Shown one piece after another: positions 5,040 to 25,028 of a stretch of DNA of 64,000 nucleotides. Position 1 is the stretch's first letter. The number at the start of each line of letters is the position of its first letter. The notes below the pieces were generated by a model. That model made no database searches, was not told where the DNA came from, and saw only the letters and a list, made by a program, of their open reading frames with translations. A program made the position numbers and the translations under genes. Source of the stretch: a phage; the sequence record PZ242158.1; one strand, written 5' to 3'.

Positions 5040-5340
5040 TACTTGAAAATTTCTGGCATATCAAGTATAAGGGGGATTTCTAAAATGGATTTCCTCCTTT
5101 TTGATATTTCACCAGGCCAGATATTTTAAAATTCTTAGAAAATCAGAAAACGGATAGAAAACTAAAATGGATTTTTCAGGGTAGACACGATGAGCTGAGC
5201 CACTCATCCTATCGTTTGCGTCATATTCCGGGCTACCATTCCAGATTTTCCGCGTATGCTCACACCCTTCTACCAGAACTTTCCCACTCGCCCTTGGCCT
5301 TTTATGGCAATAATCCAGCCACTATCTTGAAGTTGCGGTA

Positions 5341-5540
5341 CAGCTCTCCAAGTACTCGATCTGTTTTTCGTTTCAAAGATTGAATTTTCTGAAAATTTTT
5401 CTCGATAAATTTCTCAGTACTCGATCTGTTTTTCGTTTTCTGAATCGGATTTTCTGGAAATCGTTCCAGCTCTCGACCTGAAATTTTTGGGGACGAAATC
5501 GATTTTTCGTTTTCAGAAATGGATTTTTAAAATTTCTATA
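5341..5540. repeat. imperfect tandem repeat array (three units of about 52-74 bp sharing CAG(C/T)(A/T)CTCGA(T/C)CTG..TTTTTCGTTT)
   Basis: AGTACTCGATCTGTTTTTCGTTT present at 5351 and 5416; related unit at 5467. Confidence 0.6.
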
Positions 5541-5643
5541 TGGGAATATTTTATGGGATACTGTTTTATAGGAAATTGTTACGGAGGGTAATTAGCATGC
5601 TAATTAAATTTATTAAATGCGAGGAGTTCTCATTTAGAATTTT

Positions 5644-5660
5644 GAATGATAATCATTCTC
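5644..5660. promoter_or_regulatory. Fur-box-like palindrome GAATGATAATCATTCTC
   Basis: Core AATGATAATCATT matches the E. coli Fur box core (GATAATGATAATCATTATC). Confidence 0.4.
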
Positions 5661-5773
5661 GTTTGCAGAATAACGGGCAGGCCCGGTGATTGTCTCCCGG
5701 CCCCTGTTGCCCCGGCTTGTTATTATAGTATCACACAGGACAAAGAAAGCAAGGATTTTTTGCATAAATTTTT

Positions 5774-5799
5774 AAATGATAATGATAACCGTTCTCATT
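5774..5799. promoter_or_regulatory. Fur-box-like palindrome AATGATAATGATAACCGTTCTCATT
   Basis: Imperfect palindrome AATGATAAC-C-GTTCTCATT; related copies inside the 434-bp repeats. Confidence 0.35.
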
Positions 5800-6234
5800 T
5801 TATGCAGCGCCCATCCCCGGTGGTTGTCTCCCCCGTCACCGGTGCCTGCCGTCCTTTCGATAGGCATATTGTGCCACCTGGCGGGGCCGCTGTCAACACT
5901 TCTTCAAAAATTTTTTCTAACATAATGCACCAACCGCTGCAACCTGGCGGGGCCAGCCTGGCAGGACCTGACTGACCAGGTAGGAGAGAGTGAAAACTTG
6001 CAAACCTGGTAGGCCTATGCTACAGGGCAGGTAACAATTGAAGAGGAGGTACAAAAATGAAAAGTAATATAATCCCCTGGAAAATGTAGCGATCAACGCC
6101 GCTGAAGTTATCACCCTGGTTGAAAAGGCTATGGCGGGAGCGTTGGAACATAAAGAAGAGTACGAAAAATGATGGTTAACCTGGCAGGGGCGGCGGCTGG
6201 AGAATTCTTCCCAAAAAATAATTCTAACTAATGG

Positions 6235-6262
6235 TTGACAGCTCGGAGAGTTCTGTTATTCT
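6235..6262 (+). promoter_or_regulatory. sigma70-like promoter (TTGACA-16-TATTCT)
   Basis: Consensus -35 with 16-bp spacer upstream of 6316 gene. Confidence 0.45.
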
Positions 6263-6315
6263 TATCCTCGCAAGGTGAACAACACCACACTAATTAACAG
6301 AGAGGATAAAAAATC

Positions 6316-6513
6316 ATGAACGCCTACGGAATTAAAGTACGTCGCAACACTCACCAGGCCGTCACCGATCAAATGGTTTGCCAGGTGGACGTAACCATCA
6401 ACAACGGGCAAGGCCTTTATAAATTCCGTCGCGGTCAGAGCTATACCCGGCAACAGCTTAATCGTTGCGCCCTGACAAAAGGCCAGATCAACCACTGGTT
6501 TAATAAAAAATAA
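6316..6513 (+). CDS. hypothetical small protein
   Basis: AGAGAGGATAAAAAATC-ATG start context. Confidence 0.45.
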   Translation: MNAYGIKVRRNTHQAVTDQMVCQVDVTINNGQGLYKFRRGQSYTRQQLNRCALTKGQINHWFNKK

Positions 6514-6516
6514 GTA

Positions 6517-6545
6517 TTGACATATAGTCTGACACCAAATACACT
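6517..6545 (+). promoter_or_regulatory. sigma70-like promoter (TTGACA-17-TACACT)
   Basis: Consensus -35, 17-bp spacer. Confidence 0.45.
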
Positions 6546-6577
6546 AAAAGCACAAAAGACACTAAGAGGATAAAATC

Positions 6578-6976
6578 ATGAAAACCACTACCTTTAATTT
6601 TGATAATGCGGACTTTTCTTTTTCTGATGTCAAGAACTGCCGCCGTGATCGTGGATTTTACAAGGCTTATAATCTGGTGGGCCTGGACGATGACAATAAT
6701 TTGCACGAAGTAGCTGAGATCCGGTATTATGCCGCCGCCAGTGGTAACACTCACTACTGCGTGTTTTGGATTCACGACAACAAGAACAATAAGTACGGTT
6801 ATACTGGCGGCAAGGCGAGCGGTCACGGTTACGATAAAGCTAACGCAGCACTTGAGAGCGCATTAAATGCTATGGGGATCACTGCCGACGGCTGGATCTA
6901 CGAAGAAGAGTTTTTGTCGGCACTTGCTGACCACCTGGGCTATAAAAAGCACATTGTGACATGCGCCCACGAATAA
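6578..6976 (+). CDS. hypothetical protein
   Basis: AAGAGGATAAAATC-ATG start context. Confidence 0.5.
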   Translation: MKTTTFNFDNADFSFSDVKNCRRDRGFYKAYNLVGLDDDNNLHEVAEIRYYAAASGNTHYCVFWIHDNKNNKYGYTGGKASGHGYDKANAALESALNAMGITADGWIYEEEFLSALADHLGYKKHIVTCAHE

Positions 6977-6982
6977 AAATCA

Positions 6983-7010
6983 TTGACACGCTGCAAAATT
7001 TAAGTAAACT
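6983..7010 (+). promoter_or_regulatory. sigma70-like promoter (TTGACA-16-TAAACT) followed by 5'UTR hairpin GGCGGGAATGTTTCCCGCC
   Basis: Promoter plus perfect stem-loop at about 7021-7039. Confidence 0.45.
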
Positions 7011-7058
7011 AGACACAAAAGGCGGGAATGTTTCCCGCCAACACAAAGGAAAAAGATC

Positions 7059-7463
7059 ATGAATAAGAACGTACGCCGCATCATGAATGAACTGGCAAAC
7101 GATGAAAAAATTATTGACATGCATTTGATCAACATTTGCCGCCGTTGTGTAACATATAACAACCGCGCCGCAAAAGCGCGTGAGATGAACGCAAAAGGCA
7201 CCTTAAAGCCATTCCAGGTGGTGGTAAAGGCCATTAAAGATGTAACTAATACGGCAAACCAGGTACAGGGGAGCACCAACGAGAGTACCAATATTGATCC
7301 GGCTTACATCATGAAACGGATCCGGACCTGCAAGAACAAAGAGCAAGTGTATAATGTCATAGACTGGTTGGATTCTATGGGCGATGTGGTGTACAATAGA
7401 TTCTCTGCAGCTATTGAGATCCAGCTTGACAGGTTAGACGGTAAAGTACTTAAAACTTACTAA
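7059..7463 (+). CDS. hypothetical protein
   Basis: ORF 134 aa with upstream promoter and hairpin. Confidence 0.5.
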   Translation: MNKNVRRIMNELANDEKIIDMHLINICRRCVTYNNRAAKAREMNAKGTLKPFQVVVKAIKDVTNTANQVQGSTNESTNIDPAYIMKRIRTCKNKEQVYNVIDWLDSMGDVVYNRFSAAIEIQLDRLDGKVLKTY

Positions 7464-7474
7464 ATTTATTTTTA

Positions 7475-7510
7475 GATGGCCTTGACTCCAGGGCCATCAA
7501 TAAAGTAAAT
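7475..7510 (+). promoter_or_regulatory. repeated terminator-hairpin/promoter module (GATGGCCTTGACTCCAGGGCCATC hairpin containing TTGACT -35, 17-bp spacer, GTAAAT -10)
   Basis: Near-identical 45-bp element recurs at 8096 and 11836. Confidence 0.45.
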
Positions 7511-7543
7511 TAATCTCAGCTAAGCGAAAAAGGGGGCTTTAAG

Positions 7544-7663
7544 ATGAGCACTACACGCCAATACACAAAGGTAACTATTATCGCCTGCGTTGTCGGTTAC
7601 ATCCTGGCGCAAATGTTAATGAGCAGCGCTAACAGTTTTGCAAAATTTTTCTTAAATTTTTAA
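7544..7663 (+). CDS. small hydrophobic peptide (39 aa)
   Basis: AAGGGGG RBS; hydrophobic core IIACVVGYILAQML; below ORF-track size cutoff. Confidence 0.3.
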   Translation: MSTTRQYTKVTIIACVVGYILAQMLMSSANSFAKFFLNF

Positions 7664-7691
7664 TTGACAAGCTAACTTAGATTGATATACT
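7664..7691 (+). promoter_or_regulatory. sigma70-like promoter (TTGACA-16-TATACT) with downstream hairpin GGGAAAACTTCCC
   Basis: Same architecture as promoter at 9527. Confidence 0.45.
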
Positions 7692-7742
7692 TAAACACGT
7701 AAACGGGAAAACTTCCCAGAGCACACAAAAGGAGAAAACACC

Positions 7743-8084
7743 ATGACTACTATGACCGCCGCAGAAAAAGCTATTCAGATCGCCGCACTGAAAAAACAGA
7801 TCGCAGACCTTGAGAACAAGATCGATAACTTTGAAATCGACGAGGACAAGTACGACGAAAACTATGATGAATGGTTAGACGAGATCTACGGCGAAATTAT
7901 GATCGGAAACATTTCTTTTCTTCCGTCGCGTATCCTCAAGGAGCTAGATCCTATCGCTTACCGCTGCGGATTTAGCGACTACATCGACAGCCTGGATATT
8001 GAGGACGATGAAGAATACCAGGAATTACAGACAGAGTTAGAAGAAGCAAAAGAAGAGCTTGCAGAACTGGAAGAAAACGAGTAA
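7743..8084 (+). CDS. hypothetical acidic coiled-coil protein
   Basis: ORF 113 aa, Glu/Asp-rich. Confidence 0.5.
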   Translation: MTTMTAAEKAIQIAALKKQIADLENKIDNFEIDEDKYDENYDEWLDEIYGEIMIGNISFLPSRILKELDPIAYRCGFSDYIDSLDIEDDEEYQELQTELEEAKEELAELEENE

Positions 8085-8095
8085 GATTATTTTTA

Positions 8096-8140
8096 GATGG
8101 CCTTGACTCCAGGGCCATCAATAAAGTAAACTTTATACTG
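8096..8140 (+). promoter_or_regulatory. second copy of terminator-hairpin/promoter module
   Basis: GATGGCCTTGACTCCAGGGCCATCAATAAAGTAAA repeated. Confidence 0.45.
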
Positions 8141-8173
8141 TTAACACTGAACTAATGCATAGGAGTTAAAACC

Positions 8174-8419
8174 ATGGCAGCACTAATCACCAAATATTAT
8201 GCCCCTACCAACACCAAAAGCGCCCGTATCATGGTAAAAGGCTTCGGACGTAAAAAGGTGTACACCTGGGATTATGCCTTAGACACGGAAGACAACTACA
8301 CCAACGCGATGACCGATTTTATTAATGATCTGAACACGCGGATCTTGACAAATTATAAAATTACCGATATTGCCTATATAGGGGAAGGCGGGATCTGTTT
8401 TGTCGGTATCGTCAAATAA
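8174..8419 (+). CDS. hypothetical protein
   Basis: ATAGGAGTTAAAACC-ATG start context (identical context at 12773). Confidence 0.5.
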   Translation: MAALITKYYAPTNTKSARIMVKGFGRKKVYTWDYALDTEDNYTNAMTDFINDLNTRILTNYKITDIAYIGEGGICFVGIVK

Positions 8420-8494
8420 GCTGTTTTTTCGGTGGTCCTGGTAGCAGGGCCATCTATAAAGATAGTTTATCAATACAATGAAAGGAGAAAGTAC

Positions 8495-8848
8495 ATGATC
8501 AGCGGGGCAAGTTTTATTATTGGCGCTATTGCTACGGCTTTAATTGTAAACAAGATCCAATCTAAAAACGAAAAAGATAGCAACGCCCTTACAGAATACC
8601 CGTTTTGGGTATTCAACGACAATGAAGACTATATTATCAAGTACAAGAATGAGAAGGGCGACCAGGTAACACCGCGACCGATCCCGGCTTACAAGATGCA
8701 AGAAACACTATACCGCCTAAAGGCTGGAGGCGCAAAAATCGTAGACTTTTGGGGATACGATCACACAGATCAGGAAGTTATAAAGCGCCGTATCCGGGCT
8801 ATTCAGGCCAATATTGAAGTTAGCAAGGGGGGAATATATGAAGATTAA
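8495..8848 (+). CDS. hypothetical protein with N-terminal transmembrane segment
   Basis: AAAGGAGAAAGTAC-ATG; hydrophobic N-terminus. Confidence 0.45.
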   Translation: MISGASFIIGAIATALIVNKIQSKNEKDSNALTEYPFWVFNDNEDYIIKYKNEKGDQVTPRPIPAYKMQETLYRLKAGGAKIVDFWGYDHTDQEVIKRRIRAIQANIEVSKGGIYED

Positions 8849-9035
8849 TTTTGAGAAGATTGTAAAGCGATCTCATGCTTCCGAAGAGCTGCCGGAACGC
8901 CGCCAGCGCAACAATAAACTGAATAAGCCAAAAAGATTTGGGAAGATCTGGCGAAATCATTATGATCGCAAATTACCGGGCCTGCTTTTGGAACGTGAAC
9001 GACAGGCGGAACGATACCGCCACAAAGGCAAATAA
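8838..9035 (+). CDS. hypothetical basic small protein
   Basis: Overlaps upstream stop; Arg/Lys-rich. Confidence 0.35.
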   Translation: MKINFEKIVKRSHASEELPERRQRNNKLNKPKRFGKIWRNHYDRKLPGLLLERERQAERYRHKGK

Positions 9036-9043
9036 CAACCAAC

Positions 9044-9070
9044 GCCCCGCCATTGTGCGGGGCTTTTTAT
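9044..9070 (+). terminator. rho-independent terminator (GCCCCGC-loop-GCGGGGC + T-tract)
   Basis: GC-rich hairpin followed by TTTTTATTT. Confidence 0.6.
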
Positions 9071-9276
9071 TTCTATCCTACGAATAGCGCCCCCGGTTGG
9101 CCCTGTAAGCGCCAAAAAGGCCCCACCTATGCAATCGCCCCCCTTTAACCTGAAAACATCGCTTAGGGCCGTTTTATGGCGTTAAAAATATCATTGACAG
9201 TGATTTTATTTAAAGCTTGACATCTTAAACAGGTTAGCTATACTAACCACATCAAAGAGAGAAAGGAGTAAACGCC

Positions 9277-9537
9277 ATGCGTAAATTAAAAAATTTTGAT
9301 AAAGTTGATGTTGTCCTGAATAATTTTTACTACTGCAACAACAAGGCCATTTGGTGGCGTGATAGTTCCACCGATAAAGTTAAAGCTCGCTTTCTCCAAG
9401 GGCACTGGCAAGGCCGTCCAGTGATTAAAATACTGGGGCAACTGGTAGCGTTTAAAAATTGCCGCCGTGTTGATGACGTTGAAGAGATCTTGAACATTTT
9501 ACGCCACAATAATTTAAAAAATAGTGTTGACAAGTAA
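9277..9537 (+). CDS. hypothetical protein
   Basis: ORF 86 aa. Confidence 0.5.
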   Translation: MRKLKNFDKVDVVLNNFYYCNNKAIWWRDSSTDKVKARFLQGHWQGRPVIKILGQLVAFKNCRRVDDVEEILNILRHNNLKNSVDK

Positions 9538-9554
9538 ATCTCGATAAGTATACT
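9527..9554 (+). promoter_or_regulatory. sigma70-like promoter (TTGACA-16-TATACT) plus 5'UTR hairpin GGCGGGAAAACTTCCCGCC
   Basis: Consensus elements; hairpin at about 9565-9583. Confidence 0.45.
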
Positions 9555-9611
9555 TAAACACACAGGCGGGAAAACTTCCCGCCACTAACAAAGAAAATAG
9601 GAGAAAATATC

Positions 9612-10235
9612 ATGACCACCGTTAACATTACCACAGGTTACAATTTATCTTTCGACGTGCTGACCGACGAACAAAAAGAAAAAGCTATTGAAATGGTCCG
9701 CGAAAGAGAAGAACACAGCGGGGATAATTTTTTTGCAGAAAGTGTAATTGAACACTATAAAGAATATGTCTTTCCAGAGTACGGCCTTGAAGATACCGAA
9801 GTACGTTGGTCCGGCTTTTGGTGTCAAGGCGATGGCGCGTCAATCAGTGCTGAAAACGTGGATTTAGAAAAATTCTTGCGTAAAGTAAAGGCCCTGACCA
9901 AGTTCCGATCAATTCGTCACTTGTTCGGCACAATGCACGATGGCGAGTTATCAGCCAGTGTTGAACGTATCCCGTTTAGCCATTATCATCACGAAAACAC
10001 AATAGGAGGGTGCATCGATACTAATTGGCTAGACCTGACCACCAAGCAAGAGGACAAAGTTGAAGAGCTGGAAGAGCTGATCACCGAGACGGTACGGGAG
10101 CTATCCCGCAAGGTTTACGTAGACCTGGAGGAGGCCTATCTTGAACAGTTTACTACCGAAAACCTGATCGGCCTTATTGAAGCCAATGATTGGCGGTTTG
10201 ATGTGGATGAATATGGGGAGATGAGTTTTTCATAA
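9612..10235 (+). CDS. hypothetical protein
   Basis: ORF 207 aa. Confidence 0.55.
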   Translation: MTTVNITTGYNLSFDVLTDEQKEKAIEMVREREEHSGDNFFAESVIEHYKEYVFPEYGLEDTEVRWSGFWCQGDGASISAENVDLEKFLRKVKALTKFRSIRHLFGTMHDGELSASVERIPFSHYHHENTIGGCIDTNWLDLTTKQEDKVEELEELITETVRELSRKVYVDLEEAYLEQFTTENLIGLIEANDWRFDVDEYGEMSFS

Positions 10236-10325
10236 ATAAAGTGTTGCAATAATCTAAAAACCTGCTATATTAAAAACTCAAGGGGCGAGATGACTTGCCC
10301 CCCACAAAACAAAGAGGAAAACATC

Positions 10326-10706
10326 ATGAAAAACACTACTAAAGCTATTGACACCGTTATGTTTAACCTGGTTACATTCCGTGAAGATATGAAAGATCTT
10401 CCACGTGAAACAGTGTGCGACCATATCGAAAACTATCGCAAACTAATCAAAGAGTTGCCTTTAAAACGTGACCAGTACGCGGCTAACGCTATGCTTAACG
10501 CCATGATCAAAAAGATGATCCAGTGTGATTTAACTCTGGCCTATGATTATGCAGGCGGTCGTTTTGCAGTATACAATCAGCCCGTGCCCGGTATGAGCAC
10601 CACCGAAGAATTGCACGCGTTAAATCTGAAACAAGATGTATGGGATAACATGCCCCGCGTGGTGGTGTGGGCAGAAAGCGGAAAGATTTACGGCGATAAT
10701 TTTTAA
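10326..10706 (+). CDS. hypothetical protein
   Basis: CAAAGAGGAAAACATC-ATG. Confidence 0.5.
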   Translation: MKNTTKAIDTVMFNLVTFREDMKDLPRETVCDHIENYRKLIKELPLKRDQYAANAMLNAMIKKMIQCDLTLAYDYAGGRFAVYNQPVPGMSTTEELHALNLKQDVWDNMPRVVVWAESGKIYGDNF

Positions 10707-10770
10707 TCAGGTAACAGGCGGCATATTTGCCGCCTTATTGTTAAACAGAACTGCAAAAGAGGTACATAGA

Positions 10771-11142
10771 ATGGAATTTATTATTTTGGCTGTAGTAGTT
10801 GCCTTGTTCAACGCCTGGATCGCTGGCAAGATGGGTAGATCCGCTTTTTTATGGTTTATTATATCTATTTTCCTGGGGGTGGTTGCAACTATTGTACTTG
10901 TTATCCTTGCAATTGTTGACAAGGGGAATAATAGAAAGGGTAAAGTATTTTCAGACCTGTACGACGCTCAAACATTTGTCAACGCCTACTACAGCGATCT
11001 TCCAGTCTCCCTACGTTGCAGCCTTGCACAACAGGTTTTCGATGAAGCTAAAACCAGAGATCACGCCCATGAGATTTGTTTAACTGAGGCGGATCGCCTA
11101 TTTGAGAGGAATAGAAAATATGTGGACCAGCCGTTTAAATAA
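10771..11142 (+). CDS. hypothetical membrane protein (two predicted TM helices)
   Basis: Hydrophobic N-terminal half. Confidence 0.45.
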   Translation: MEFIILAVVVALFNAWIAGKMGRSAFLWFIISIFLGVVATIVLVILAIVDKGNNRKGKVFSDLYDAQTFVNAYYSDLPVSLRCSLAQQVFDEAKTRDHAHEICLTEADRLFERNRKYVDQPFK

Positions 11143-11361
11143 TGCCACGTTAATTAACCCCTTTAGTGAAGATTTGAAGCCAGCCGCCTGGCGGGATGGA
11201 TTCAATAACGAAAGCTTTATTTTCAGGCCTGATCTTAAGGAATTTTATAACAATGGATCGAACAACGACAGAGATAATTTTTCTTGTAATGTGCGTGGTG
11301 ATAATACTCCTGGGAGCCATTGCAAACCACGTCACTGCTAACAGGAGGAAAGGGGGAGACG

Positions 11362-11481
11362 ATGACACCCAAGGATAAGCCCCGCACCGATAAGGCGCGC
11401 CGTGTTATGGTATGGCTTGAGATCATCGCCCTTGAAATATTGTTAGGCGTAGGGATGTATTTTATCGCTGTAAGTAATTGA
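11362..11481 (+). CDS. small hydrophobic peptide (39 aa)
   Basis: AGGAGGAAAGGGGGAG RBS; C-terminal TM-like segment; followed by terminator-like hairpin. Confidence 0.3.
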   Translation: MTPKDKPRTDKARRVMVWLEIIALEILLGVGMYFIAVSN

Positions 11482-11622
11482 TAACGGCCCCGATCCCTGG
11501 GGCCTAACTTTTCAAATTTTTTTTCTCCCTGAGTGTTGCAATCCGATCCAGAATATGGATAATAACAATCAACGGGGAGACACTCCCCACCGCATAGACA
11601 AAGTTCCAAAAGGAGAAACAAA

Positions 11623-11823
11623 ATGAGCAACAATATCCGCGTTATTAACTTCAAAAAAGAAGAAAAAATTGCCGTGCTGATTGACGGTCAAGAAATCTTT
11701 AAAGGTGATTATGAAGATCATCAAACGGCGATTAGTATCACTCGCGTGATTGGTTACCATAATTTTTACCCTCAAGGCGCTGAGGCAGCAGTAAAACTAA
11801 TTAAAGAGATTGTAGGCCTGTAA
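11623..11823 (+). CDS. hypothetical small protein
   Basis: AAAAGGAGAAACAAA-ATG. Confidence 0.5.
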   Translation: MSNNIRVINFKKEEKIAVLIDGQEIFKGDYEDHQTAISITRVIGYHNFYPQGAEAAVKLIKEIVGL

Positions 11824-11835
11824 AATTTATTTTTA

Positions 11836-11872
11836 GATGGCCTTGACTCCAGGGCCATCAATAAAGTAAATT
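11836..11872 (+). promoter_or_regulatory. third copy of terminator-hairpin/promoter module
   Basis: GATGGCCTTGACTCCAGGGCCATCAATAAAGTAAAT. Confidence 0.45.
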
Positions 11873-11914
11873 TAAACCCTGTTAAAATAATCAGTGCAAA
11901 AAGGAGTAATGATC

Positions 11915-12214
11915 ATGTTTATCCAGGCTAATAATCTTTATTTCTTTGATGGTCAGATCGTAGACGGCGTGGAGGTGGAAATCACCGGGTGCCCTGGCGG
12001 TCAGGTTATGACTTTTCGGAATAATGCCTTTGATGATTCTCATATCGTTATGAGAATGGAAGTTAGTAAGCTGGATGACAAGAAAACACTCATTGATTAT
12101 TCCGTGAAAGATCATCCAGACTACCACATGATCTATGGTGATTTGTGCATTGTTGACCGTGACAAGGTGGGCGGCATTGTGATCGCTATTGTGAACGATG
12201 TTTTCTCAAACTAA
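11915..12214 (+). CDS. hypothetical protein
   Basis: AAAAGGAGTAATGATC-ATG. Confidence 0.5.
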   Translation: MFIQANNLYFFDGQIVDGVEVEITGCPGGQVMTFRNNAFDDSHIVMRMEVSKLDDKKTLIDYSVKDHPDYHMIYGDLCIVDRDKVGGIVIAIVNDVFSN

Positions 12215-12231
12215 TTTCAGCAGGTGATTTT

Positions 12232-12582
12232 ATGAAAGTAAAACTATATTACCTTAATGAGCTTAACCCCCTTGCCCAGGTCCGCGCCCTGGCTAATACC
12301 TTGATTTGTGAGAAATCTGTATATTGTGTTGAGCTTAACTCCATGCGTGAACGTCTCAAAGGTGGTTACTTTGACATCCATGCTGCAATCAACGGCCTGA
12401 ATATGGAATTTATCCGCTTACGTAACAGCCGCCAGAATCTGGCAAGAATGGAACAAGATCCGGCCCACCTTCGTAAGCTGGTTATTGAAAATCATCTAAT
12501 GTTTAATGCCGATGGTGATTATTACCATTTTCACCGTAAACGCTGGTACCGTAGCGGCAATATAGGAAAGAATGCAAAATAA
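12232..12582 (+). CDS. hypothetical protein
   Basis: ORF 116 aa followed by two hairpins (12586-12651). Confidence 0.5.
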   Translation: MKVKLYYLNELNPLAQVRALANTLICEKSVYCVELNSMRERLKGGYFDIHAAINGLNMEFIRLRNSRQNLARMEQDPAHLRKLVIENHLMFNADGDYYHFHRKRWYRSGNIGKNAK

Positions 12583-12788
12583 GGCCCCTGGCAGGGCCTG
12601 CAGCGATATAATCACATAAAGGCTATGCGGTTGCATAGCCTTTATTATTTTGGCGTTACAGCGGCCCCCAAGGCGCTTAAAAAATTTTTAAAGAAGTACT
12701 TGCATCAAGTCCTACAATATGGATAATAAAGGGTGTCGGGGGGCGGTGAGGCCTCCAATCATTAACCGGATAGATAGGAGTTAAAACC

Positions 12789-13073
12789 ATGGCTATTGTT
12801 ACCGTTGGCGATGTAGTAGAAATGGAAGCCAAATACTTAAAAGCTGGTATGCATATCATACGGAATGATCAAGAATTGTTATTAACCATGGTTGAATATA
12901 ATCCCGGTCAGGATTATCCAAGCATTGACTACTTTTTCCAGTATGTTGATGAAGAATTAAAAGAGGATGAGGCTTATCAGGGTGAATTTTGTAATTTCTT
13001 TTGCCCTGATGAGGTTGTAAAAGTTATCTATCAACCTGGCGTACCTTTCCCGCTGCACGCTATCAACAAATAA
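12789..13073 (+). CDS. hypothetical acidic protein
   Basis: ATAGGAGTTAAAACC-ATG. Confidence 0.5.
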   Translation: MAIVTVGDVVEMEAKYLKAGMHIIRNDQELLLTMVEYNPGQDYPSIDYFFQYVDEELKEDEAYQGEFCNFFCPDEVVKVIYQPGVPFPLHAINK

Positions 13074-13128
13074 ACCTGGCGGGGCCGAAAAGGCCCCCAA
13101 TTATGAAAATAAAGAGAGGCAAATCATC

Positions 13129-13362
13129 ATGATGGAACAAATTAAACGCGCCGAGGCTATTAATGGCAACGTGATCTATTTTGTCAGCAAAAACGAAAAA
13201 GGCGTACCCTATGCGGCGGTAATAGTACAGCCTGACGGCGATTATTGGTGTACTGTGTACGGCGCTTATTCTTTTGGGCGTCCAGTGCATGATAAAATTT
13301 TGAAAGTAGCGAACCCTACCGGGAAAAATATCACAGCAGAAAAATTTTTTGAAAATAGTTGA
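13129..13362 (+). CDS. hypothetical small protein
   Basis: AAAGAGAGGCAAATCATC-ATG. Confidence 0.5.
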   Translation: MMEQIKRAEAINGNVIYFVSKNEKGVPYAAVIVQPDGDYWCTVYGAYSFGRPVHDKILKVANPTGKNITAEKFFENS

Positions 13363-13433
13363 CATGACCATATAAGACTGTAGTATATAAATCAAAGGGG
13401 CAAGCCCCACCAACCACAAAGAGGATAAAAATC

Positions 13434-13613
13434 ATGGCTATTATTGCAAAGACTGAGATCGTAGGCTTGGATTCTATTCTCCTCGCATATGAGGAAGCTA
13501 TAGAAATGTATGTGGTTTCCTATGGTGAGTATATCCGTGAATATAAATCTATTGATCTGGCTTTTGAATGTTATATTCGCCAGGTTAATAAAGCGTACGA
13601 TGATTATCGTTAA
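13434..13613 (+). CDS. hypothetical small protein (59 aa)
   Basis: TTGACA-16-TAGTAT promoter and CAAAGAGGATAAAAATC-ATG. Confidence 0.4.
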   Translation: MAIIAKTEIVGLDSILLAYEEAIEMYVVSYGEYIREYKSIDLAFECYIRQVNKAYDDYR

Positions 13614-13703
13614 AATAGTTTGAAAACAAACAACCATCTTACAAAGCATAATACATAAGGCGGTGGAATGGTCCGCCACCTGGAACAAGAAGAGGAAAAC
13701 AAA

Positions 13704-13808
13704 ATGAAACAGAAATTAATTGATGCGGTGATCCTGGTTATTGCCCTGGGTATTGGCCTGATTGCAACCATGGCTAATGTGATCTTGTCTTCCAACGGTA
13801 TCGGGTGA
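13704..13808 (+). CDS. small hydrophobic peptide (34 aa)
   Basis: AAGAGGAAAACAAA-ATG; single TM-like segment. Confidence 0.3.
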   Translation: MKQKLIDAVILVIALGIGLIATMANVILSSNGIG

Positions 13809-13817
13809 GGTTGGCAA

Positions 13818-14033
13818 ATGATCACTAACAAAACAGGCAAAACGGAATTTTTACGCAACTTACAGATCGGCAAGCCTGAGATCTGGTATTGCACTAAAAC
13901 ACCACGTGACGAAATGAAAGACTTCACCGCCACGCTGCAACGGGTAAAGATATCCATCACGCAGAAAAAGGCCTTGATAGTGGTGGAAGGTGAGATCCCT
14001 CAAACCGTTGTTATAGTTGAGCGTACAGCATAG
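13818..14033 (+). CDS. hypothetical small protein
   Basis: ORF 71 aa. Confidence 0.45.
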   Translation: MITNKTGKTEFLRNLQIGKPEIWYCTKTPRDEMKDFTATLQRVKISITQKKALIVVEGEIPQTVVIVERTA

Positions 14034-14124
14034 TTTAATTTATACCGATACCCGAAAATTAACCAACAAAGCATAAACAGGCGGTTACCGCCGCCTTAAA
14101 CGTAGCAGAAAGAGGATAGACACA

Positions 14125-14409
14125 ATGAAAAAGATGATCGCAGTGGTTGCCCTGGTTGTTGGACTTAATGCGCCTGTAATGGCTAAAGAGCTGGCAAAAG
14201 AGGTTGATCTAACGGATATCCATGCCGTCAATCAAATCGGGGTTACTTATCGCTTATGCCTTGCCGCTAAAACTTTTAATGACGGCACAACAGAGTACTA
14301 CGGATTCGAGGGTATCCGGTGCGGTGAGCTTGCTCGCGACCTTAAGGAAGATCCAGACCTGGAAGATCTGCCCATCACCGTAAACGGTAAAGCTTACGTA
14401 AACCGTTAA
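14125..14409 (+). CDS. hypothetical secreted protein (N-terminal signal peptide)
   Basis: MKKMIAVVALVVGLNAPVMA signal-like N-terminus. Confidence 0.5.
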   Translation: MKKMIAVVALVVGLNAPVMAKELAKEVDLTDIHAVNQIGVTYRLCLAAKTFNDGTTEYYGFEGIRCGELARDLKEDPDLEDLPITVNGKAYVNR

Positions 14410-14411
14410 CC

Positions 14412-14546
14412 ATGAGAAAGATAATCATCACCTTGGGGATTGTGGCGGGATCGCTGGCGCTCTTTCTCCTTATGGTTAGGTATGTGCTGATCGGTATTGT
14501 CCTGGTAGTCAGTGATCTATTGGAAACGGTTGGCACCTTGTTTTAA
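14412..14546 (+). CDS. small hydrophobic peptide (44 aa)
   Basis: Two hydrophobic stretches; immediately follows upstream stop. Confidence 0.3.
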   Translation: MRKIIITLGIVAGSLALFLLMVRYVLIGIVLVVSDLLETVGTLF

Positions 14547-14558
14547 AGAGCGGTAAAA

Positions 14559-14750
14559 ATGAATATCGAACAAGTTAGAAAGGTATTGGCGGTACTGCGT
14601 TATCATAATCATAGAAAGGTCATAGACGATCCTGATTATGTCGATTCAAGCCTGGAAGGGGATACACTACAAGCCATAAGTAATATGCAAGAATTGCTAA
14701 AGCGCATGACAGAGAAAAACCGACCGGACTACATAGGCGAAAAAATATAA
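14559..14750 (+). CDS. hypothetical small protein
   Basis: ORF 63 aa; terminator-like hairpin downstream. Confidence 0.45.
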   Translation: MNIEQVRKVLAVLRYHNHRKVIDDPDYVDSSLEGDTLQAISNMQELLKRMTEKNRPDYIGEKI

Positions 14751-14963
14751 TCCTTATAAACTACAAAACAGGGCTTGCAATGGTCCTGTTTTTTTGTTAT
14801 ACTTGTTTCACGGCAGGCACCTGGCGACGGGGGGAGACAATCACCGGGTGTGCCTGCTATATAAAAACTATAAAAACCGTTGACATCTGCCAGGTGCTGG
14901 GGTAGCATTTATCTCGAAGGGGGCAAAAGCGCCCACACAACAACCGGAAGAGAGGAAAACGCC

Positions 14964-15236
14964 ATGTTAAGCTGGATTAACCAAGAAGTTGAATCACGTT
15001 TTAATGCTATTTGGGATCTCATCGAAAAAGAAGACGGCACATCAAGCCCCTACCTCAACAATTTGGAATTCCATTTTGTGGAAGCGATGAACGCAGAACA
15101 TGATCACGAAGGTGGCGCGGATGAGTTCGCTAAAGGTTATGGCTTTAACAATGCCAACGAAATGATCGAGGCGGTAGTACTCCAGGCTGAGGAAGATTAT
15201 CAATTAAAAACGCTTGAATTCTGCCGCCGCAAGTAA
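14964..15236 (+). CDS. hypothetical acidic protein
   Basis: GAAGAGAGGAAAACGCC-ATG. Confidence 0.45.
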   Translation: MLSWINQEVESRFNAIWDLIEKEDGTSSPYLNNLEFHFVEAMNAEHDHEGGADEFAKGYGFNNANEMIEAVVLQAEEDYQLKTLEFCRRK

Positions 15237-15298
15237 TAAGATAATGACACGGGCCAAAAGGCCCACTAAACAAAAACCACATAAAGAGGAAAAACATC

Positions 15299-15562
15299 AT
15301 GAAACGCCTTGATCAGCTCAAATTAGTTCAATATATGGCTTATCGTGTTCTTGAAGTCCAGAAAGGTAGCAAAAAAGAGGTTTGCGAGAAAGCTTATAAG
15401 ATCTTCACTCGCAAAAAAGATGACTGGATGCTACGCCAGACCAAAAAGGCTGACATCTTGGGGTACCTGGAAGAAGAGATCCGACTTGAAGAGCAAGAAG
15501 AGATCCGCCGTAGTGAGGCAGATTATCAGGCAGCTTGGGAAAACTGGATGAGCAACAAATAA
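15299..15562 (+). CDS. hypothetical protein
   Basis: AAAGAGGAAAAACATC-ATG. Confidence 0.5.
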   Translation: MKRLDQLKLVQYMAYRVLEVQKGSKKEVCEKAYKIFTRKKDDWMLRQTKKADILGYLEEEIRLEEQEEIRRSEADYQAAWENWMSNK

Positions 15563-15705
15563 TACAACAAGGTGCACGGTCAGGGGCTTAAAGCCCCTTG
15601 ATCACATAAAAATTATGCTATCCCTGGTTGACAGGGATCGGCAGTTTTGCTATATTCTTTTTTGAAGGGAAGTTGTAAGAAAATTAACTAAGAGGTAAAA
15701 ACACC

Positions 15706-16125
15706 ATGAACATTAAATCTAATAATCCGGCATATAGCTTTGATAACGCTTTTTGTCACGGTCCGGCGGCGAAAGGATTCGAAATCGATGGTAAACTAAT
15801 TATTGTCAATGTTGACGGGGAAGAGGTTGCAGTATATCCGGTGGCAGACGTAAAAAGCCGTTTACAATGCCGCATGGATGTTACCGCCTATCAGCTTGAT
15901 CCGGTCCGCATAGTTGCCCTGGTCCTGGAAGAAGAAATTAAAGCCATGCACCATAGCAACAGGTTTATTGGTGACGCTCAGGATAATATGAAGGTGTGCC
16001 GCCATAAAGTTAATGAAGTGCTTAAAGAGTACGGCTATAAAGATCTTATGATCAAACGTGATGAAAAATTCCGGTACCGTAACGACCTGGCAAATCGGAT
16101 TTTTGAAATATACGAATCATTATAA
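15706..16125 (+). CDS. hypothetical protein
   Basis: CTAAGAGGTAAAAACACC-ATG; last plus-strand gene before gene-free zone. Confidence 0.5.
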   Translation: MNIKSNNPAYSFDNAFCHGPAAKGFEIDGKLIIVNVDGEEVAVYPVADVKSRLQCRMDVTAYQLDPVRIVALVLEEEIKAMHHSNRFIGDAQDNMKVCRHKVNEVLKEYGYKDLMIKRDEKFRYRNDLANRIFEIYESL

Positions 16126-16785
16126 TTTTTTAACTGAATTATCAAGGGGCTTAGGTCCCTTTCTTTTTGTCTGCTCTTCCTCCCTACCATAAACGGCCCT
16201 ACCTGGCAAGTGGAATAATTGACGAGCCATCAATCCCACACACTGTACAAATATACATGTAAAATAACTATTGCATAACCTTTCATTGTGTGGTAGCGGT
16301 GCTATTTTTACCCGTTTTCCTTCCAAAATTGCACGTAATGCAGCTATTGCACAAAATTTAACCTGATGCGCATCTTCAATATCTTGTCAACAACTAAAAA
16401 TCTTTATAAGTCATACACTTACACAAACCAAAAAGCGTGTTCTACGTGAAAAATCGAGTATAACTATAGCCGACAGATCTCAGAATTTACGTACGCTCAC
16501 CATTCTATAGCCTGCTAAGTATTTATTCCGACCATAGAATAACAGAATAGTCAATACCTGCATAAAATAATTATTCGTTTAAATTGCATAACATAAATCA
16601 GCTCAGGTGTCAACATTTTTCGTAAACAGTCTGAAATTGTCACGGCAAGTTATCATAATCAGAGAAATCTTTAGTCGTCTAATGTTTACTGTACGTTACT
16701 ATACTAACTGGAATCATTAGATGACTAATAGAAAGATAAGAAATAATTAACAATACAATTATTTTATCTGTAACAATAAGGCAAC

Positions 16786-16950
16786 TATGCAAACGAATGG
16801 CATGGCGCGACGGAGTCGCGACATAATATAAAAGCAGTAACCATCACCCCCGTGATAGTTTGTCTGCAATCTATTAATCAGATCATAGTTGCCTTGTATT
16901 TAGTTAATCATGACATAACAAGCAAGGCAACTATAGATCTTCTAATAGTT
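16786..16950. repeat. iteron-like inverted repeats (AAGGCAACTAT / ATAGTTGCCTTG) with palindrome GCGACGGAGTCGC
   Basis: GGCAACTAT occurs twice direct and twice inverted within about 160 bp; ATGCAAACGAATGGCATGGC also repeated at 16797 and 17059. Confidence 0.5.
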
Positions 16951-17191
16951 GCCCTGCTTTTATATTATGTCATATATTATTAACTTGTTAATTGTTAGTC
17001 AGTCAAATCAACAGCGTTATCATTTCAGTCTTTATTGTTGTTGATCGTTATTGTTATCATGCAAACGAATGGCATGGCTTATCATCTCTGTATAAACAGT
17101 TTATGCGTGAACAGTGAGGCATGCAATAGTAACAATTGTTATTGTGTCATCATGTCAAGGGTAAAGTGTCATAGTATGTCAGACATGTTTT

Positions 17192-17625
17192 TCCCCTCTT
17201 TGTCAAGTGCTGCATGAAAAAATTTACAAGCTGGTATGGTAGCATTTTTGCGGCCTTGTTTACATTCAGGAGTGTATGTATAATCCTTGTTGTGTGGGCG
17301 TTTATACGTCTGGACGGTCAGAAGTCTGCAGGTTAATATCTAATCTATTGGCTGCTAACTATATCCCACACAAATGATAAGAAATATAATTGTTATATGC
17401 GTAAACTGTAACTCATGTTATCAATCCCTGTATGTATCGCCAGTGGTGCGCATAATGGGTATTATGTTAAATTGCCCGTAATGATAACAGTTCTCACAAT
17501 GATAGGTATTCTCATTCATCCACACAAAATAGGTTGCAAATGTTGTGCCACTGTGTGAACGGCCTGGCCTATTAATTTCTCTCACTGCCTCGATATTTGA
17601 GAATTGTTATAAGAATGAGAAGTAT
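17192..17625. repeat. 434-bp direct repeat, copy 1
   Basis: Identical to 17752-18185 by visual comparison. Confidence 0.85.
17256..17284 (+). promoter_or_regulatory. sigma70-like promoter inside repeat copy 1 (TTGTTT-17-TATAAT)
   Basis: Perfect -10 hexamer with 17-bp spacer; no ORF downstream. Confidence 0.4.
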
Positions 17626-17751: not shown

Positions 17752-18185
17752 TCCCCTCTTTGTCAAGTGCTGCATGAAAAAATTTACAAGCTGGTATGGT
17801 AGCATTTTTGCGGCCTTGTTTACATTCAGGAGTGTATGTATAATCCTTGTTGTGTGGGCGTTTATACGTCTGGACGGTCAGAAGTCTGCAGGTTAATATC
17901 TAATCTATTGGCTGCTAACTATATCCCACACAAATGATAAGAAATATAATTGTTATATGCGTAAACTGTAACTCATGTTATCAATCCCTGTATGTATCGC
18001 CAGTGGTGCGCATAATGGGTATTATGTTAAATTGCCCGTAATGATAACAGTTCTCACAATGATAGGTATTCTCATTCATCCACACAAAATAGGTTGCAAA
18101 TGTTGTGCCACTGTGTGAACGGCCTGGCCTATTAATTTCTCTCACTGCCTCGATATTTGAGAATTGTTATAAGAATGAGAAGTAT
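17752..18185. repeat. 434-bp direct repeat, copy 2
   Basis: Identical to copy 1; 126-bp unique spacer between copies. Confidence 0.85.
17816..17844 (+). promoter_or_regulatory. sigma70-like promoter inside repeat copy 2 (TTGTTT-17-TATAAT)
   Basis: Same as copy 1. Confidence 0.4.
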
Positions 18186-24710: not shown

Positions 24711-25028
24711 TCATTCTCTAAAGTCAATCTTTACTTTGCCTTTCCCCTTACCTTTCTTTCCACCGCATTTAGCCAGTTGACGTGCTGCAACATCTACCAT
24801 ACGGTCAGTTGCCTCGTAAGCATCACTGCCTTTAGCTTTGGCAATAACTTCTTTTCCAGAATTGTCAAAAATGAACGCCATAACTTCCTGGTGATCATTT
24901 TCAACTTTTACACTCACACGTGCATAGTTGGCAGAGGGATGCAAACGCTCCAGCTTAGACATTTTGTGGGAAATGAAAGACACCATACCTTCAGTGATTT
25001 CTACGTTGCCAGTGATTTCAATTTGCAT
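24711..25028 (-). CDS. hpf: ribosome hibernation promoting factor / YfiA (RaiA) family homolog
   Basis: MQIEITGNVEITEGM...KLE...VKVE...G.E..A.A.G.D.Y.A.D...D..ARQL.K closely parallels E. coli HPF (MQLNITGNNVEITEALR..). Confidence 0.75.
   Translation of the reverse strand: MQIEITGNVEITEGMVSFISHKMSKLERLHPSANYARVSVKVENDHQEVMAFIFDNSGKEVIAKAKGSDAYEATDRMVDVAARQLAKCGGKKGKGKGKVKIDFRE

Follow-up and report, generated by a model that had tools for sequence, protein, structure and literature searches.

Gene content and setting of the locus

The 64,000-nucleotide (nt) stretch of phage DNA analysed here (sequence record PZ242158.1; referred to as the window) was identified by DNA comparison as that of a Vequintavirus, an rV5-like coliphage. 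We concentrated on the block at positions 6300-16130, in which 28 plus-strand genes were called (6316-16125; Table 1), and on a repeated expression cassette found before many of them. In its full form this cassette has five parts: a sigma-70 promoter (often behind an A/T-rich tract), a GC-rich stem-loop, an unstructured A/C-rich linker, an AGAGGA-type Shine-Dalgarno (SD) sequence, and a 7-8-nt A-rich spacer followed by ATG. Neither the locus nor its promoters are new; what is worth recording is the hairpin cassette downstream of the promoter, its presence in three coliphage lineages, and its tie to gene gain, loss and exchange.

Matches to 6300-16130 were found in 236 phage records, the best being Escherichia phage rV5_ev147 (99.4% identity, full length), while DNA identity to the type phage V5/rV5 (NC_011041) was 93%. 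The full 9.8 kb was collinear with rV5 ORF164-196 in 77 records at 93-99.4% identity, which places it in the early ORFan region of Vequintavirus, and in annotated relatives these open reading frames (ORFs) are a row of 'hypothetical proteins'. The block forms the distal end of a plus-strand unit that opens with rIIB, helicases, primase and a T7-like DNA polymerase, and is followed by approximately 2.4 kb of AT-rich gene-free DNA and then by a convergent minus-strand unit. The rV5 genome paper (Kropinski et al. 2013, PMC3606486) lists in its Table S4 nine predicted sigma-70 promoters here (P164, P168, P174, P185, P186, P192, P194, P195 and P195A) and four predicted terminators in the stretch t164-t184. 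The window has in common with rV5 both genes and the promoters at 6235, 6517, 6983, 7664, 9217, 9527, 13359, 14880 and 15628; it differs in that gene 17 is present and rV5 ORF166 is missing. As far as the available portions of that paper and table go, the rV5 account covers promoters and terminators only, and makes no mention of leader hairpins, fixed spacing, a shared start context, the 50-nt repeat described below as D1, a codon-usage shift or cassette-bounded indels.

The gene products ranged from 34 to 207 amino acids (aa), as originally predicted. All 28 matched PHROG families without assigned function and so represent conserved genes, not chance ORFs. Their sole Pfam match was that of gene 8 to T7 gp1.1, itself uncharacterised, and searches of Pfam, PHROGs and NCBIfam, together with a PDB sequence search for genes 2, 10 and 28, revealed no function by homology beyond it, in agreement with the expectation that the products lack recognisable enzyme motifs. 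The tiny hydrophobic peptides that had also been predicted were four in number (genes 4, 14, 21 and 24; 34-44 aa), and three further products had an N-terminal transmembrane or signal segment. The products of genes 5 and 10 were very acidic, with net charges of about -26 and -25, respectively. Gene 10, the largest (207 aa), belongs to a family for which an exhaustive search returned at least 1,379 related clusters, yet it had no Pfam, NCBIfam or PDB relative, and its confident AlphaFold model (pLDDT 93) had no structural neighbour when the PDB was searched. Members of this family are sometimes fused into proteins of 480-780 aa. The homologues of jumbo phages lie within annotated terminal repeats, a region that the paper on phage CBB views as a continuation of early host-takeover genes (PMC5259590). 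The labels given to gene 10 in other records ('YeeU-like antitoxin', 'DNA translocase FtsK', 'holin', 'acetyltransferase') were unsupported by any of our searches, and the eight loci returned from IMG/VR were of little use.

The GC content of the block was 42.6%, compared with 42.5% for the whole window, which rules out a GC island and contradicts the predicted elevation over flanking DNA. The accompanying check of codon usage did reveal a distinct pattern: relative synonymous codon usage (RSCU) in the block correlated at 0.47-0.58 with that of three control gene sets, one of which consisted of the same-strand genes directly upstream of the block, whereas the control sets correlated with one another at 0.83-0.88. 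The block favoured codons ending in C (frequency at third positions 0.257, against 0.190; p = 1e-6).

Promoters and start context

Defining a strong promoter site as one that matched at least 10 of 12 consensus positions, we found 10 such sites on the plus strand of the block and none on the minus strand, where 1.9 +/- 1.4 per strand were expected; a looser scan found 37 sites, compared with 24.4 +/- 4.6 in shuffled sequences. Nine genes (1, 2, 3, 5, 9, 10, 20, 26 and 28) had a strong promoter and about six (4, 6, 11, 15, 16 and 18) a weaker one, making about 15 of 28 with a recognisable sigma-70-type promoter. Seven genes (8, 13, 14, 17, 22, 24 and 25) overlapped or abutted the upstream gene and had no promoter of their own, and in six others a hairpin was present in the spacer without a convincing promoter. 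The claim that each gene carries its own promoter was thus overstated, though it holds for roughly half of them.

The start context aaAGAGGAnAAAnAnC-ATG, or in consensus form aaA(A/G)AGGAnAAAnAnC-ATG, was common to about 17 of the 28 genes, so that the near-identical context that had been proposed applied to these and not to the remaining genes. The spacer between the SD sequence and the ATG was 50% A (28-36% in control genes) and the position before the ATG was C in 57% of starts (about 18% in controls); SD pairing was not stronger than in control genes. Families of ribosome binding sites (RBS) were recovered independently by repeat finding, among them an exact 20-nt RBS common to genes 6 and 18 (repeat family D17), and the cassettes of genes 5 and 10 were 78% identical over 54 nt (repeat family D6).

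Leader hairpins

Eight leaders folded into a single 5'-proximal hairpin (z -2.1 to -5.4 relative to shuffled sequences) that left the SD sequence and the AUG unpaired. In an unbiased test, which took positions -57 to -13 of all spacers 55 nt or longer, z was below -2 in 10 of 20 window leaders and in none of 24 coding controls. The block, which makes up 15% of the window's length, contained 13 of the window's 28 sites with a hairpin shortly before an RBS; hairpins were also present in 5 of 16 control spacers. The perfect GC hairpins on which the original prediction was based (7021-7039 and 9565-9583) are therefore real, and the description of such hairpins as frequent is borne out by the eight significant leaders, while five others are weaker.

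The position of these hairpins was nearly constant, starting exactly 10 nt past the -10 box in genes 3, 10, 11 and 15 and 11-13 nt past it in genes 5, 18, 20 and 26. Given the usual transcription start about 7 nt past the -10 box, the stem-loop would begin at about +3 to +5 of the transcript. Next came an A/C-rich, G-poor linker, then a box reading AGAGGA or AAGGAG, and finally a spacer rich in A. The sequences directly 3' of the hairpins (AACACAAAGG, ACTAACAAAG, CCACAAAACA) contained no U tract of the kind that defines an intrinsic terminator. Such U tracts were found after the hairpins at 9044, 12616, 14765 and 16144, which are features separate from the leader hairpins.

Stem sequences differed between cassettes while pairing was kept (GGCGGGAA/TTCCCGCC, GGCGGCA/TGCCGC, GGGGAGAA/TTCTCCCC, GGCGGTTGA/TCAGCCGCC), and loops varied as well (TGT, AAC, ATGA, ACA, ATGG, TTAC). 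In a search of Rfam, no match passed the gathering threshold and even at E <= 1 none was relevant, the matches in the window being only tRNAs elsewhere and one at chance level; neither this search for a curated RNA model nor the loops and their surroundings, in which we looked for a conserved loop with a boxA, revealed a lambda-type nut site. We found no description of these leader hairpins in the literature. Two other roles were considered and rejected: RNase III sites, by the reasoning that stems of 5-10 bp are too short, and antisense terminators (an A-tract precedes some hairpins), as the tails on the reverse strand make poor U tracts.

A variant of the cassette was found in D1, a 50-nt repeat present in three near-identical copies (starting at 7462, 8083 and 11823) and nowhere else in the window, in which an A/T-rich tract is followed by a 10-bp palindrome with the -35 box in its loop. 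Among relatives the arms of D1 did not vary, in contrast to the sixth base of its -35 box, which varied freely. A degenerate copy at 8418 has lost its -35 box and keeps its stem only through G.U pairs, which points to selection on a plus-strand RNA hairpin and not on a promoter or a DNA palindrome. As G.U-only pairing was also observed in one relative (L012), it is the plus-strand RNA that appears to be the folded molecule.

Two further observations concern the geometry of these palindromes. The arrangement of a -35 box within a palindrome loop recurred at 15620-15638 and on the minus strand near 23.2 kb, in addition to the D1 copies at 7475, 8096 and 11836 (ATCCCTGGTTGACAGGGAT, CACACAGGTGTTGACAACGCCAACCCTGTGTG, GATGGCCTTGACTCCAGGGCCATC). 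In the corresponding region of phage APCEc02 (at 7271), the gene 10 leader hairpin GGCGGGAAGTTTTCCCGCC was the exact reverse complement of the window's GGCGGGAAAACTTCCCGCC (9565-9583), so that the loop was inverted and the stem unchanged.

The hairpins of genes 21 and 23 lack a promoter, of which a -10-like relic is left. For gene 21, some relatives have retained TTGACA, with the canonical 17-nt spacer only in phage inoa, while JLBYU08 and V5 have a 21-nt spacer as in the window. Because of these relics and the TTGACA of the relatives, these promoter-less leaders look like cassettes whose promoter has decayed and whose hairpin and RBS have been kept.

The cassette in other phage lineages

The same layout was found before most small genes of Phapecoctavirus tuntematon, in which 26 genes have spacers of about 80 nt that follow the pattern TTGACA-N16/17-TAAACT-gtatcACATAG-GGCGGGAA..TTCCCGCC-..AGAGAGA..ATG, and in the jumbo Asteriusvirus vB_Ec-M-J, whose cassettes (CTTGCAA-N17-TATAAT-gttttACATC-hairpin-RBS) lie inside its 21.5-kb direct terminal repeat. 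Among 57 distinct cassettes with promoter and hairpin from the three lineages, the hairpin started 10-12 nt past the -10 box in 41 and ended 17-31 nt 5' of the ATG in nearly all. Values of z below -2 were obtained for 11 of 18 leaders in tuntematon and 8 of 19 in vB_Ec-M-J, compared with none of 42 coding controls; over the three phages together, the proportions were 29 of 57 leaders and none of 66 controls. A core of the form G-rich...GGGAA/TTCCC...C and the loops ATGG, GTGG and TAG recurred among these cassettes.

Seven genes (19, 21-25 and 28) were common to the block and tuntematon, where their order is changed and other genes are interleaved. Their proteins were 67-90% identical (53% for gene 21), and their DNA was 74-82% identical where it could be aligned. 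The tuntematon homologue of gene 19 is preceded by a cassette hairpin identical to the hairpin of gene 3 in the window (GGCGGGAATGTTTCCCGCC), and gene 20 recurs in several Phapecoctavirus genomes as an isolated patch that is 92-93% identical. An 88-nt cassette used as a query returned Vequintavirus records only, because it was too short. The unusually uniform wiring that had been noticed in the block is thus real and reflects a shared modular cassette, but it is unique neither to this island nor to this phage lineage.

Gene gain, loss and exchange among relatives

A synteny comparison of the window with nine relatives showed the block to be hypervariable among close relatives, with discrete, cassette-sized differences at seven variable sites. 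Repeats were present at the junctions, in the leader (about 28 nt), in hairpins (18 nt) and in the -35 box (6 nt). V5 and APCEc02 carry an extra gene between genes 26 and 27, on either side of which about 28 nt of the gene 27 leader and RBS occur as a direct repeat. APCEc02 is without gene 28 and its whole cassette, the junction lying within two similar flanking hairpins, and in MiataMamis a 542-nt insertion at the gene 9 cassette is joined exactly at a TTGACA of the tandem promoter. Gene 17 (region 12229-12582) is cleanly missing from V5 and phita32, in which the remnant ATGATGCAAAATAA consists of the ATG joined to the last codons. Gene 24 is missing from MiataMamis, and further genes come and go in the interval from gene 20 to gene 21 and in the DNA that follows gene 25. 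At the level of these junction sequences, the cassettes mark sites of ORF insertion, deletion and exchange within the genus and across lineages. The mechanism may be one in which the cassettes, being similar to one another, serve as short homology patches for recombination.

Table 1. Genes, cassettes, hairpins and terminators of the block in genomic order. Promoters are written as -35 box, spacer length and -10 box; z compares folding with shuffled sequences; rV5 names are from Table S4 of PMC3606486.
Feature	Position	Strand	Remarks
Gene 1 cassette	6235-6315	+	TTGACA-16-TATTCT (6235-6262); weak leader hairpin only; RBS AGAGGATAAAAAATC; rV5 P195A
Gene 1	6316-6513	+	
Gene 2 cassette	6517-6577	+	TTGACA-17-TACACT (6517-6545); A/C-rich unstructured leader; rV5 P195
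Gene 2	6578-6976	+	
Gene 3 cassette	6983-7058	+	TTGACA-16-TAAACT (6983-7010); rV5 P194
Gene 3 hairpin	7021-7039	+	GGCGGGAATGTTTCCCGCC; starts 10 nt past -10; dG -14.6, z -3.7
Gene 3	7059-7463	+	
D1 copy 1, 5' of gene 4	7462-7511	+	50 nt; A/T-rich tract; palindrome GATGGCC..GGCCATC (7475-7498); TTGACT -35 in loop; TAAATT -10
Gene 4	7544-7663	+	
Gene 5 cassette	7664-7742	+	TTGACA-16-TATACT (7664-7691); weak hairpin GGGAAAACTTCCC (7705-7717), z -1.2; rV5 P192
Gene 5	7743-8084	+	
D1 copy 2, 5' of gene 6	8083-8132	+	Hairpin 8096-8119
Gene 6	8174-8419	+	
Degenerate D1, 5' of gene 7	8418-8467	+	Hairpin GGTGGTCC..GGGCCATC (8431-8454) kept via G.U pairs; -35 lost
Gene 7	8495-8848	+	
Gene 8	8838-9035	+	
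Intrinsic terminator 3' of gene 8	9044-9063	+	GCCCCGC..GCGGGGC, then TTTTTATTT
Gene 9 cassette	9190-9276	+	Two tandem -35 boxes; TTGACA-16-TATACT (9217-9244); unstructured leader; rV5 P186
Gene 9	9277-9537	+	
Gene 10 cassette	9527-9611	+	TTGACA-16-TATACT (9527-9554); rV5 P185
Gene 10 hairpin	9565-9583	+	GGCGGGAAAACTTCCCGCC; starts 10 nt past -10; z -5.4
Gene 10	9612-10235	+	
Gene 11 cassette	10244-10325	+	TTGCAA-16-TATATT (10244-10271); hairpin GGGGCGAGATGACTTGCCCC (10282-10301), z -2.9
Gene 11	10326-10706	+	
Hairpin/terminator 5' of gene 12	10716-10735	+	AGGCGGCATATTTGCCGCCT, then TATTGTT; 35 nt 5' of gene 12; rV5 t184
Gene 12	10771-11142	+	
Gene 13	11120-11341	+	
Gene 14	11362-11481	+	
Terminator-like hairpin 3' of gene 14	11486-11504	+	rV5 t181
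Gene 15 cassette	11536-11622	+	TTGCAA-16-GATAAT (11536-11563); hairpin GGGGAGACACTCCCC (11574-11588), z -3.6
Gene 15	11623-11823	+	
D1 copy 3, 5' of gene 16	11823-11872	+	Hairpin 11836-11859
Gene 16	11915-12214	+	
Gene 17	12232-12582	+	
Two hairpins 3' of gene 17	12582-12645	+	Second (12616-12645) with T-run, terminator; rV5 t177
Gene 18 cassette	12700-12788	+	TTGCAT-16-GATAAT (12700-12727), gene 15 design; hairpin 12739-12756, z 0.0, not significant; RBS as in gene 6
Gene 18	12789-13073	+	
Hairpin 5' of gene 19	13081-13097	+	GGGGCCGAAAAGGCCCC; 31 nt 5' of gene 19; no recognisable promoter
Gene 19	13129-13362	+	
Gene 20 cassette	13359-13433	+	TTGACA-16-TAGTAT (13359-13386); short hairpin GGGGCAAGCCCC (13397-13408), z -0.75; rV5 P174
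Gene 20	13434-13613	+	
Gene 21 leader	13648-13703	+	CATAAT -10; decayed -35 (TTGAAA, 21-nt spacer); hairpin AGGCGGTGGAATGGTCCGCCACCT (13658-13681), z -2.5
Gene 21	13704-13808	+	
Gene 22	13818-14033	+	
Hairpin 5' of gene 23	14079-14096	+	AGGCGGTTACCGCCGCCT; 28 nt 5' of gene 23; CATAAA relic before; z -2.1
Gene 23	14125-14409	+	
Gene 24	14412-14546	+	
Gene 25	14559-14750	+	
Terminator 3' of gene 25	14765-14792	+	Hairpin, then TTTTTTT
Gene 26 cassette	14880-14963	+	TTGACA-17-TAGCAT (14880-14908); imperfect hairpin 14919-14934, z -1.6; rV5 P168
Gene 26	14964-15236	+	
Gene 27 leader	15251-15298	+	Hairpin GGGCCAAAAGGCCC (15251-15264), z -2.9, then ACTAAACAAAAACCACATAAAGAGGAAAAACATC
Gene 27	15299-15562	+	
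Gene 28 cassette	15578-15705	+	Hairpin 15578-15603; TTGACA-17-TATATT (15628-15656); rV5 P164
Gene 28 -35 box in palindrome	15620-15638	+	ATCCCTGGTTGACAGGGAT
Gene 28	15706-16125	+	
Block-closing terminator	16144-16161	+	AAGGGGCTTAGGTCCCTT, then TCTTTTTG; rV5 t164

Other features of the window

Several features outside the cassettes were also observed. The approximately 1.3-kb gap 5' of gene 1 (5040-6315) contains ORFs annotated in relatives, and the window has an interrupted version of at least one (6057-6227). The motif CCTGGCGGGGCC (or CCTGGCAGGG) occurred five times, at 5877, 5943, 6180, 12587 and 13075, mostly directly 3' of stop codons.

The gene-free AT-rich stretch between the convergent units (approximately 16.2-18.6 kb) contains an exact 434-nt direct repeat (17192-17625 and 17752-18185), with a 126-nt spacer that had no match elsewhere. 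A single copy was present in four relatives, and in the one relative in which the junction was checked (rV5_ev147) this copy continues directly into the DNA 3' of the window's second copy. The GenBank records of several relatives start or stop near this repeat, which could be terminal, a genuine duplication or an artefact of assembly. Short direct and inverted repeats crowd the adjacent non-coding DNA (16740-17150): ATGCAAACGAATGGCATGGC occurs twice, ATAGTTGCC motifs run in either direction, and a perfect inverted repeat of 18 nt lies at 16820/16954. This set has the appearance of an origin or a protein-binding array.

On the minus strand, a homologue of the ribosome hibernation promotion factor is encoded at 24711-25028, its leader having a TTGACA-17-TATCAT promoter and a hairpin 8 nt later, and genes for ClpP-like, PhoH-like and Sir2-family proteins lie farther along this unit. 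Six clustered tRNA genes are present on the plus strand at 62085-62894.

Discussion

We consider it probable that the block is a hyperplastic, variable set of small early 'accessory' genes of Vequintavirus built of repeated expression cassettes. The small promoter-rich genes, their position at the end of a transcription unit, the hypervariability, the block's own codon usage and the occurrence of gene 10 homologues in jumbo phage terminal repeats are all compatible with an early accessory region.

As an account of how the cassettes work, we favour, with reasonable though by no means full confidence, reusable units of promoter, 5' hairpin and RBS that would provide early expression, mRNA protection and an open RBS, and would double as recombination patches. 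Judging from the promoter type, host RNA polymerase would fire the cassette promoters once the DNA enters the cell. The 5'-proximal stem-loop would hinder 5'-end-dependent mRNA decay through RppH and RNase E, as is the case for ompA and papA; 5' stem-loops that stabilise mRNA have been described by Emory 1992, Bouvet and Belasco 1992, Arnold 1998, and Bricker and Belasco 1999 (as cited in PMC3997798). Because the hairpin is self-contained, it and the A/C-rich linker would leave the RBS open whatever ORF follows, which could give uniformly high expression of unrelated small genes. Some hairpins that have lost their promoter would persist inside polycistronic transcripts. The likeness to ompA and papA lies in a stable hairpin a few nt from the predicted 5' end with an accessible RBS after it; the difference is that here the 5' ends are predicted, the overhang may be 3-5 nt, and several hairpins have no promoter.

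A number of points weigh against this account. The predicted overhang of 3-5 nt is borderline for ompA-type protection, lying at the upper edge of the lengths that reportedly protect such mRNAs. Scanning RNase E bypasses internal 'orthogonal' stem-loops (PMC9943677), so that 5' protection does not account for the promoter-less hairpins of genes 12, 19, 21, 23 and 27 unless RNA processing takes place immediately 5' of these. Five of the 13 folded hairpin-bearing leaders were not significant relative to shuffled sequences (z -1.2, 0.0, -0.75, -1.6 and -1.2). Orthologous stems were nearly invariant among the 7-13 distinct sequences available per leader, and classical covariation is therefore not demonstrable; alignment of 25 diverse cassettes with MAFFT and RNAalifold gave only four consensus pairs, because a sequence-based alignment does not accommodate arms of different lengths. 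Strong promoters are not special to this stretch, as the window's other gene blocks had them at a similar density. With regard to recombination, selection purging broken genes would by itself leave the surviving indel junctions in spacers, and it is consequently the flanking repeats, not the positions of the junctions, that constitute the real evidence. Finally, our search of the literature on Vequintavirus and Phapecoctavirus found no transcriptome, start-site, time-course or half-life data.

Among the closest known systems is the PeSL (promoter-early stem-loop), a mobile regulatory cassette of T4-type phages (Arbiol et al. 2010, PMC2839356; Comeau et al. 2014, PMC4122927). Its stem-loop, just 5' of the promoter, is a terminator with a GGGG...CCCC stem, and crossovers have been mapped to the segment that runs from the -10 box to the ATG. 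As in PeSLs, a sigma-70-like early promoter, an SD sequence and an ATG form a conserved unit here, a GC stem-loop is part of the composite, the unit is repeated among ORFans of hyperplastic regions, and the indel and replacement junctions of close relatives fall inside the elements. In contrast to PeSLs, in which the stem-loop precedes the promoter, the commonest hairpin here is within the 5' UTR, starting 10-12 nt past the -10 box, and has no U tract. The D1 hairpin overlaps the -35 box and is preceded by its T-run, D1 and gene 28 have the -35 box in a hairpin loop, and the phages with the present cassette are not T4-like. The cassette is a variant of the PeSL idea, not a new kind of system.

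Instead of protecting mRNA, the hairpins might be recognition sites of a regulatory factor of phage or host (an RNA-binding repressor, a lambda N/boxB-type antiterminator, a nuclease protector, or a DNA-binding dimer at +12 to +30) that times or shuts off an early regulon. The fixed distance between promoter and hairpin would suit such sites, as would the core and loops that recur in three unrelated lineages, the conserved initially transcribed sequences (ACATAG in Phapecoctavirus, TTTACATC in Asteriusvirus) and the boxB-like GAAAA or AAAA loops of two promoter-less hairpins (13081-13097 and 15251-15264). However, stems and loops otherwise vary widely between cassettes with pairing kept, the G.U-only pairs speak against a double-stranded DNA operator, neither a boxA-like partner (by eye) nor an Rfam match was found, and the Pfam and PHROG searches gave no candidate binding protein among the products, which leads us to regard this explanation as unlikely. 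We are similarly doubtful of a more specific proposal, that the promoter-proximal hairpin, instead of being a generic stabiliser, is a specific cis-element of early transcripts in three or more unrelated coliphage lineages (Vequintavirinae, Stephanstirmvirinae and Asteriusvirus), read by a common factor that might, for example, spare the early mRNAs of the phage or give them preference while the host is shut off. The entire promoter-hairpin-RBS unit would on this view be an expression cassette mobile across lineages, taking ORFans from one phage family to another.

It is also conceivable that the hairpins are terminators or attenuators that insulate each cassette and throttle read-through, as the PeSL stem-loops do (PMC4122927; PMC2839356). 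Terminator-like sites were indeed enriched in the block (23, compared with 10.1 +/- 3.4), genuine terminators are present at 9044, 11486, 12616, 14765 and 16144, and the hairpin at 10716 is annotated as t184 in rV5 (PMC3606486). The leader hairpins, however, lie downstream of their own promoter and have an A/C-rich tail instead of a U tract, and would for these reasons efficiently stop neither their own transcript nor read-through; as the T-run of D1 likewise precedes its hairpin, we consider this function quite improbable. That nothing is special here, base composition and ordinary bacterial-type gene starts having been over-read by eye, would accord with the ordinary GC content, the unremarkable SD strength, the equal frequency of strong promoters in other blocks and the hairpins in control spacers, but is for the most part refuted by the comparisons with shuffled sequences and controls (the excess of strong promoters on the coding strand only, the folding of leaders in three phages relative to coding controls, and the concentration of hairpin-before-RBS sites) as well as by the exact multi-copy repeats and the fixed promoter-hairpin distance, and can hardly be credited.

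Early or takeover gene clusters are located at the genome ends of several phages, such as the terminal-redundancy module of SPO1, the pre-early (first-step-transfer) genes of T5 and the class I genes of T7. The block resembles these clusters and the early region of CBB, which runs into the terminal repeat of that phage (PMC5259590), in its small genes of unassigned function, its many strong host-type promoters and its strong RBSs; the gp1.1-like product is a trait in common with T7, and gene 10 has homologues in the terminal repeats of jumbo phages. The block differs from these clusters in that its products have no homology to characterised takeover proteins and in that it is transcribed towards a gene-free region, not away from one. 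No product matched a characterised host-takeover or anti-defence protein in Pfam or PHROGs, or in the PDB for genes 2, 10 and 28, no dedicated anti-defence library having been searched. A role of the products in host takeover or anti-defence is plausible, and is a reasonable reading of their position and of the analogy with such clusters rather than of homology. The original prediction of a gene island of this kind thus retains its small, promoter-rich, hypervariable genes with a codon usage of their own, but loses the raised GC content and the promoter for every gene, and its proposed function remains one by analogy.

The cassette leaves the functions of the proteins unaddressed. As a portable unit before dozens of unrelated small genes, it delimits the early accessory set of large coliphage groups found in therapy collections (rV5-like, phAPEC8-like and 121Q-like), could be used as a search key for such genes in new genomes, and suggests a route by which small genes move between lineages. 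If the 5' hairpin sets the lifetime or translation of the mRNA, the cassette would be a compact natural part, consisting of promoter, protective hairpin and open RBS, for uniform expression of arbitrary ORFs in E. coli.

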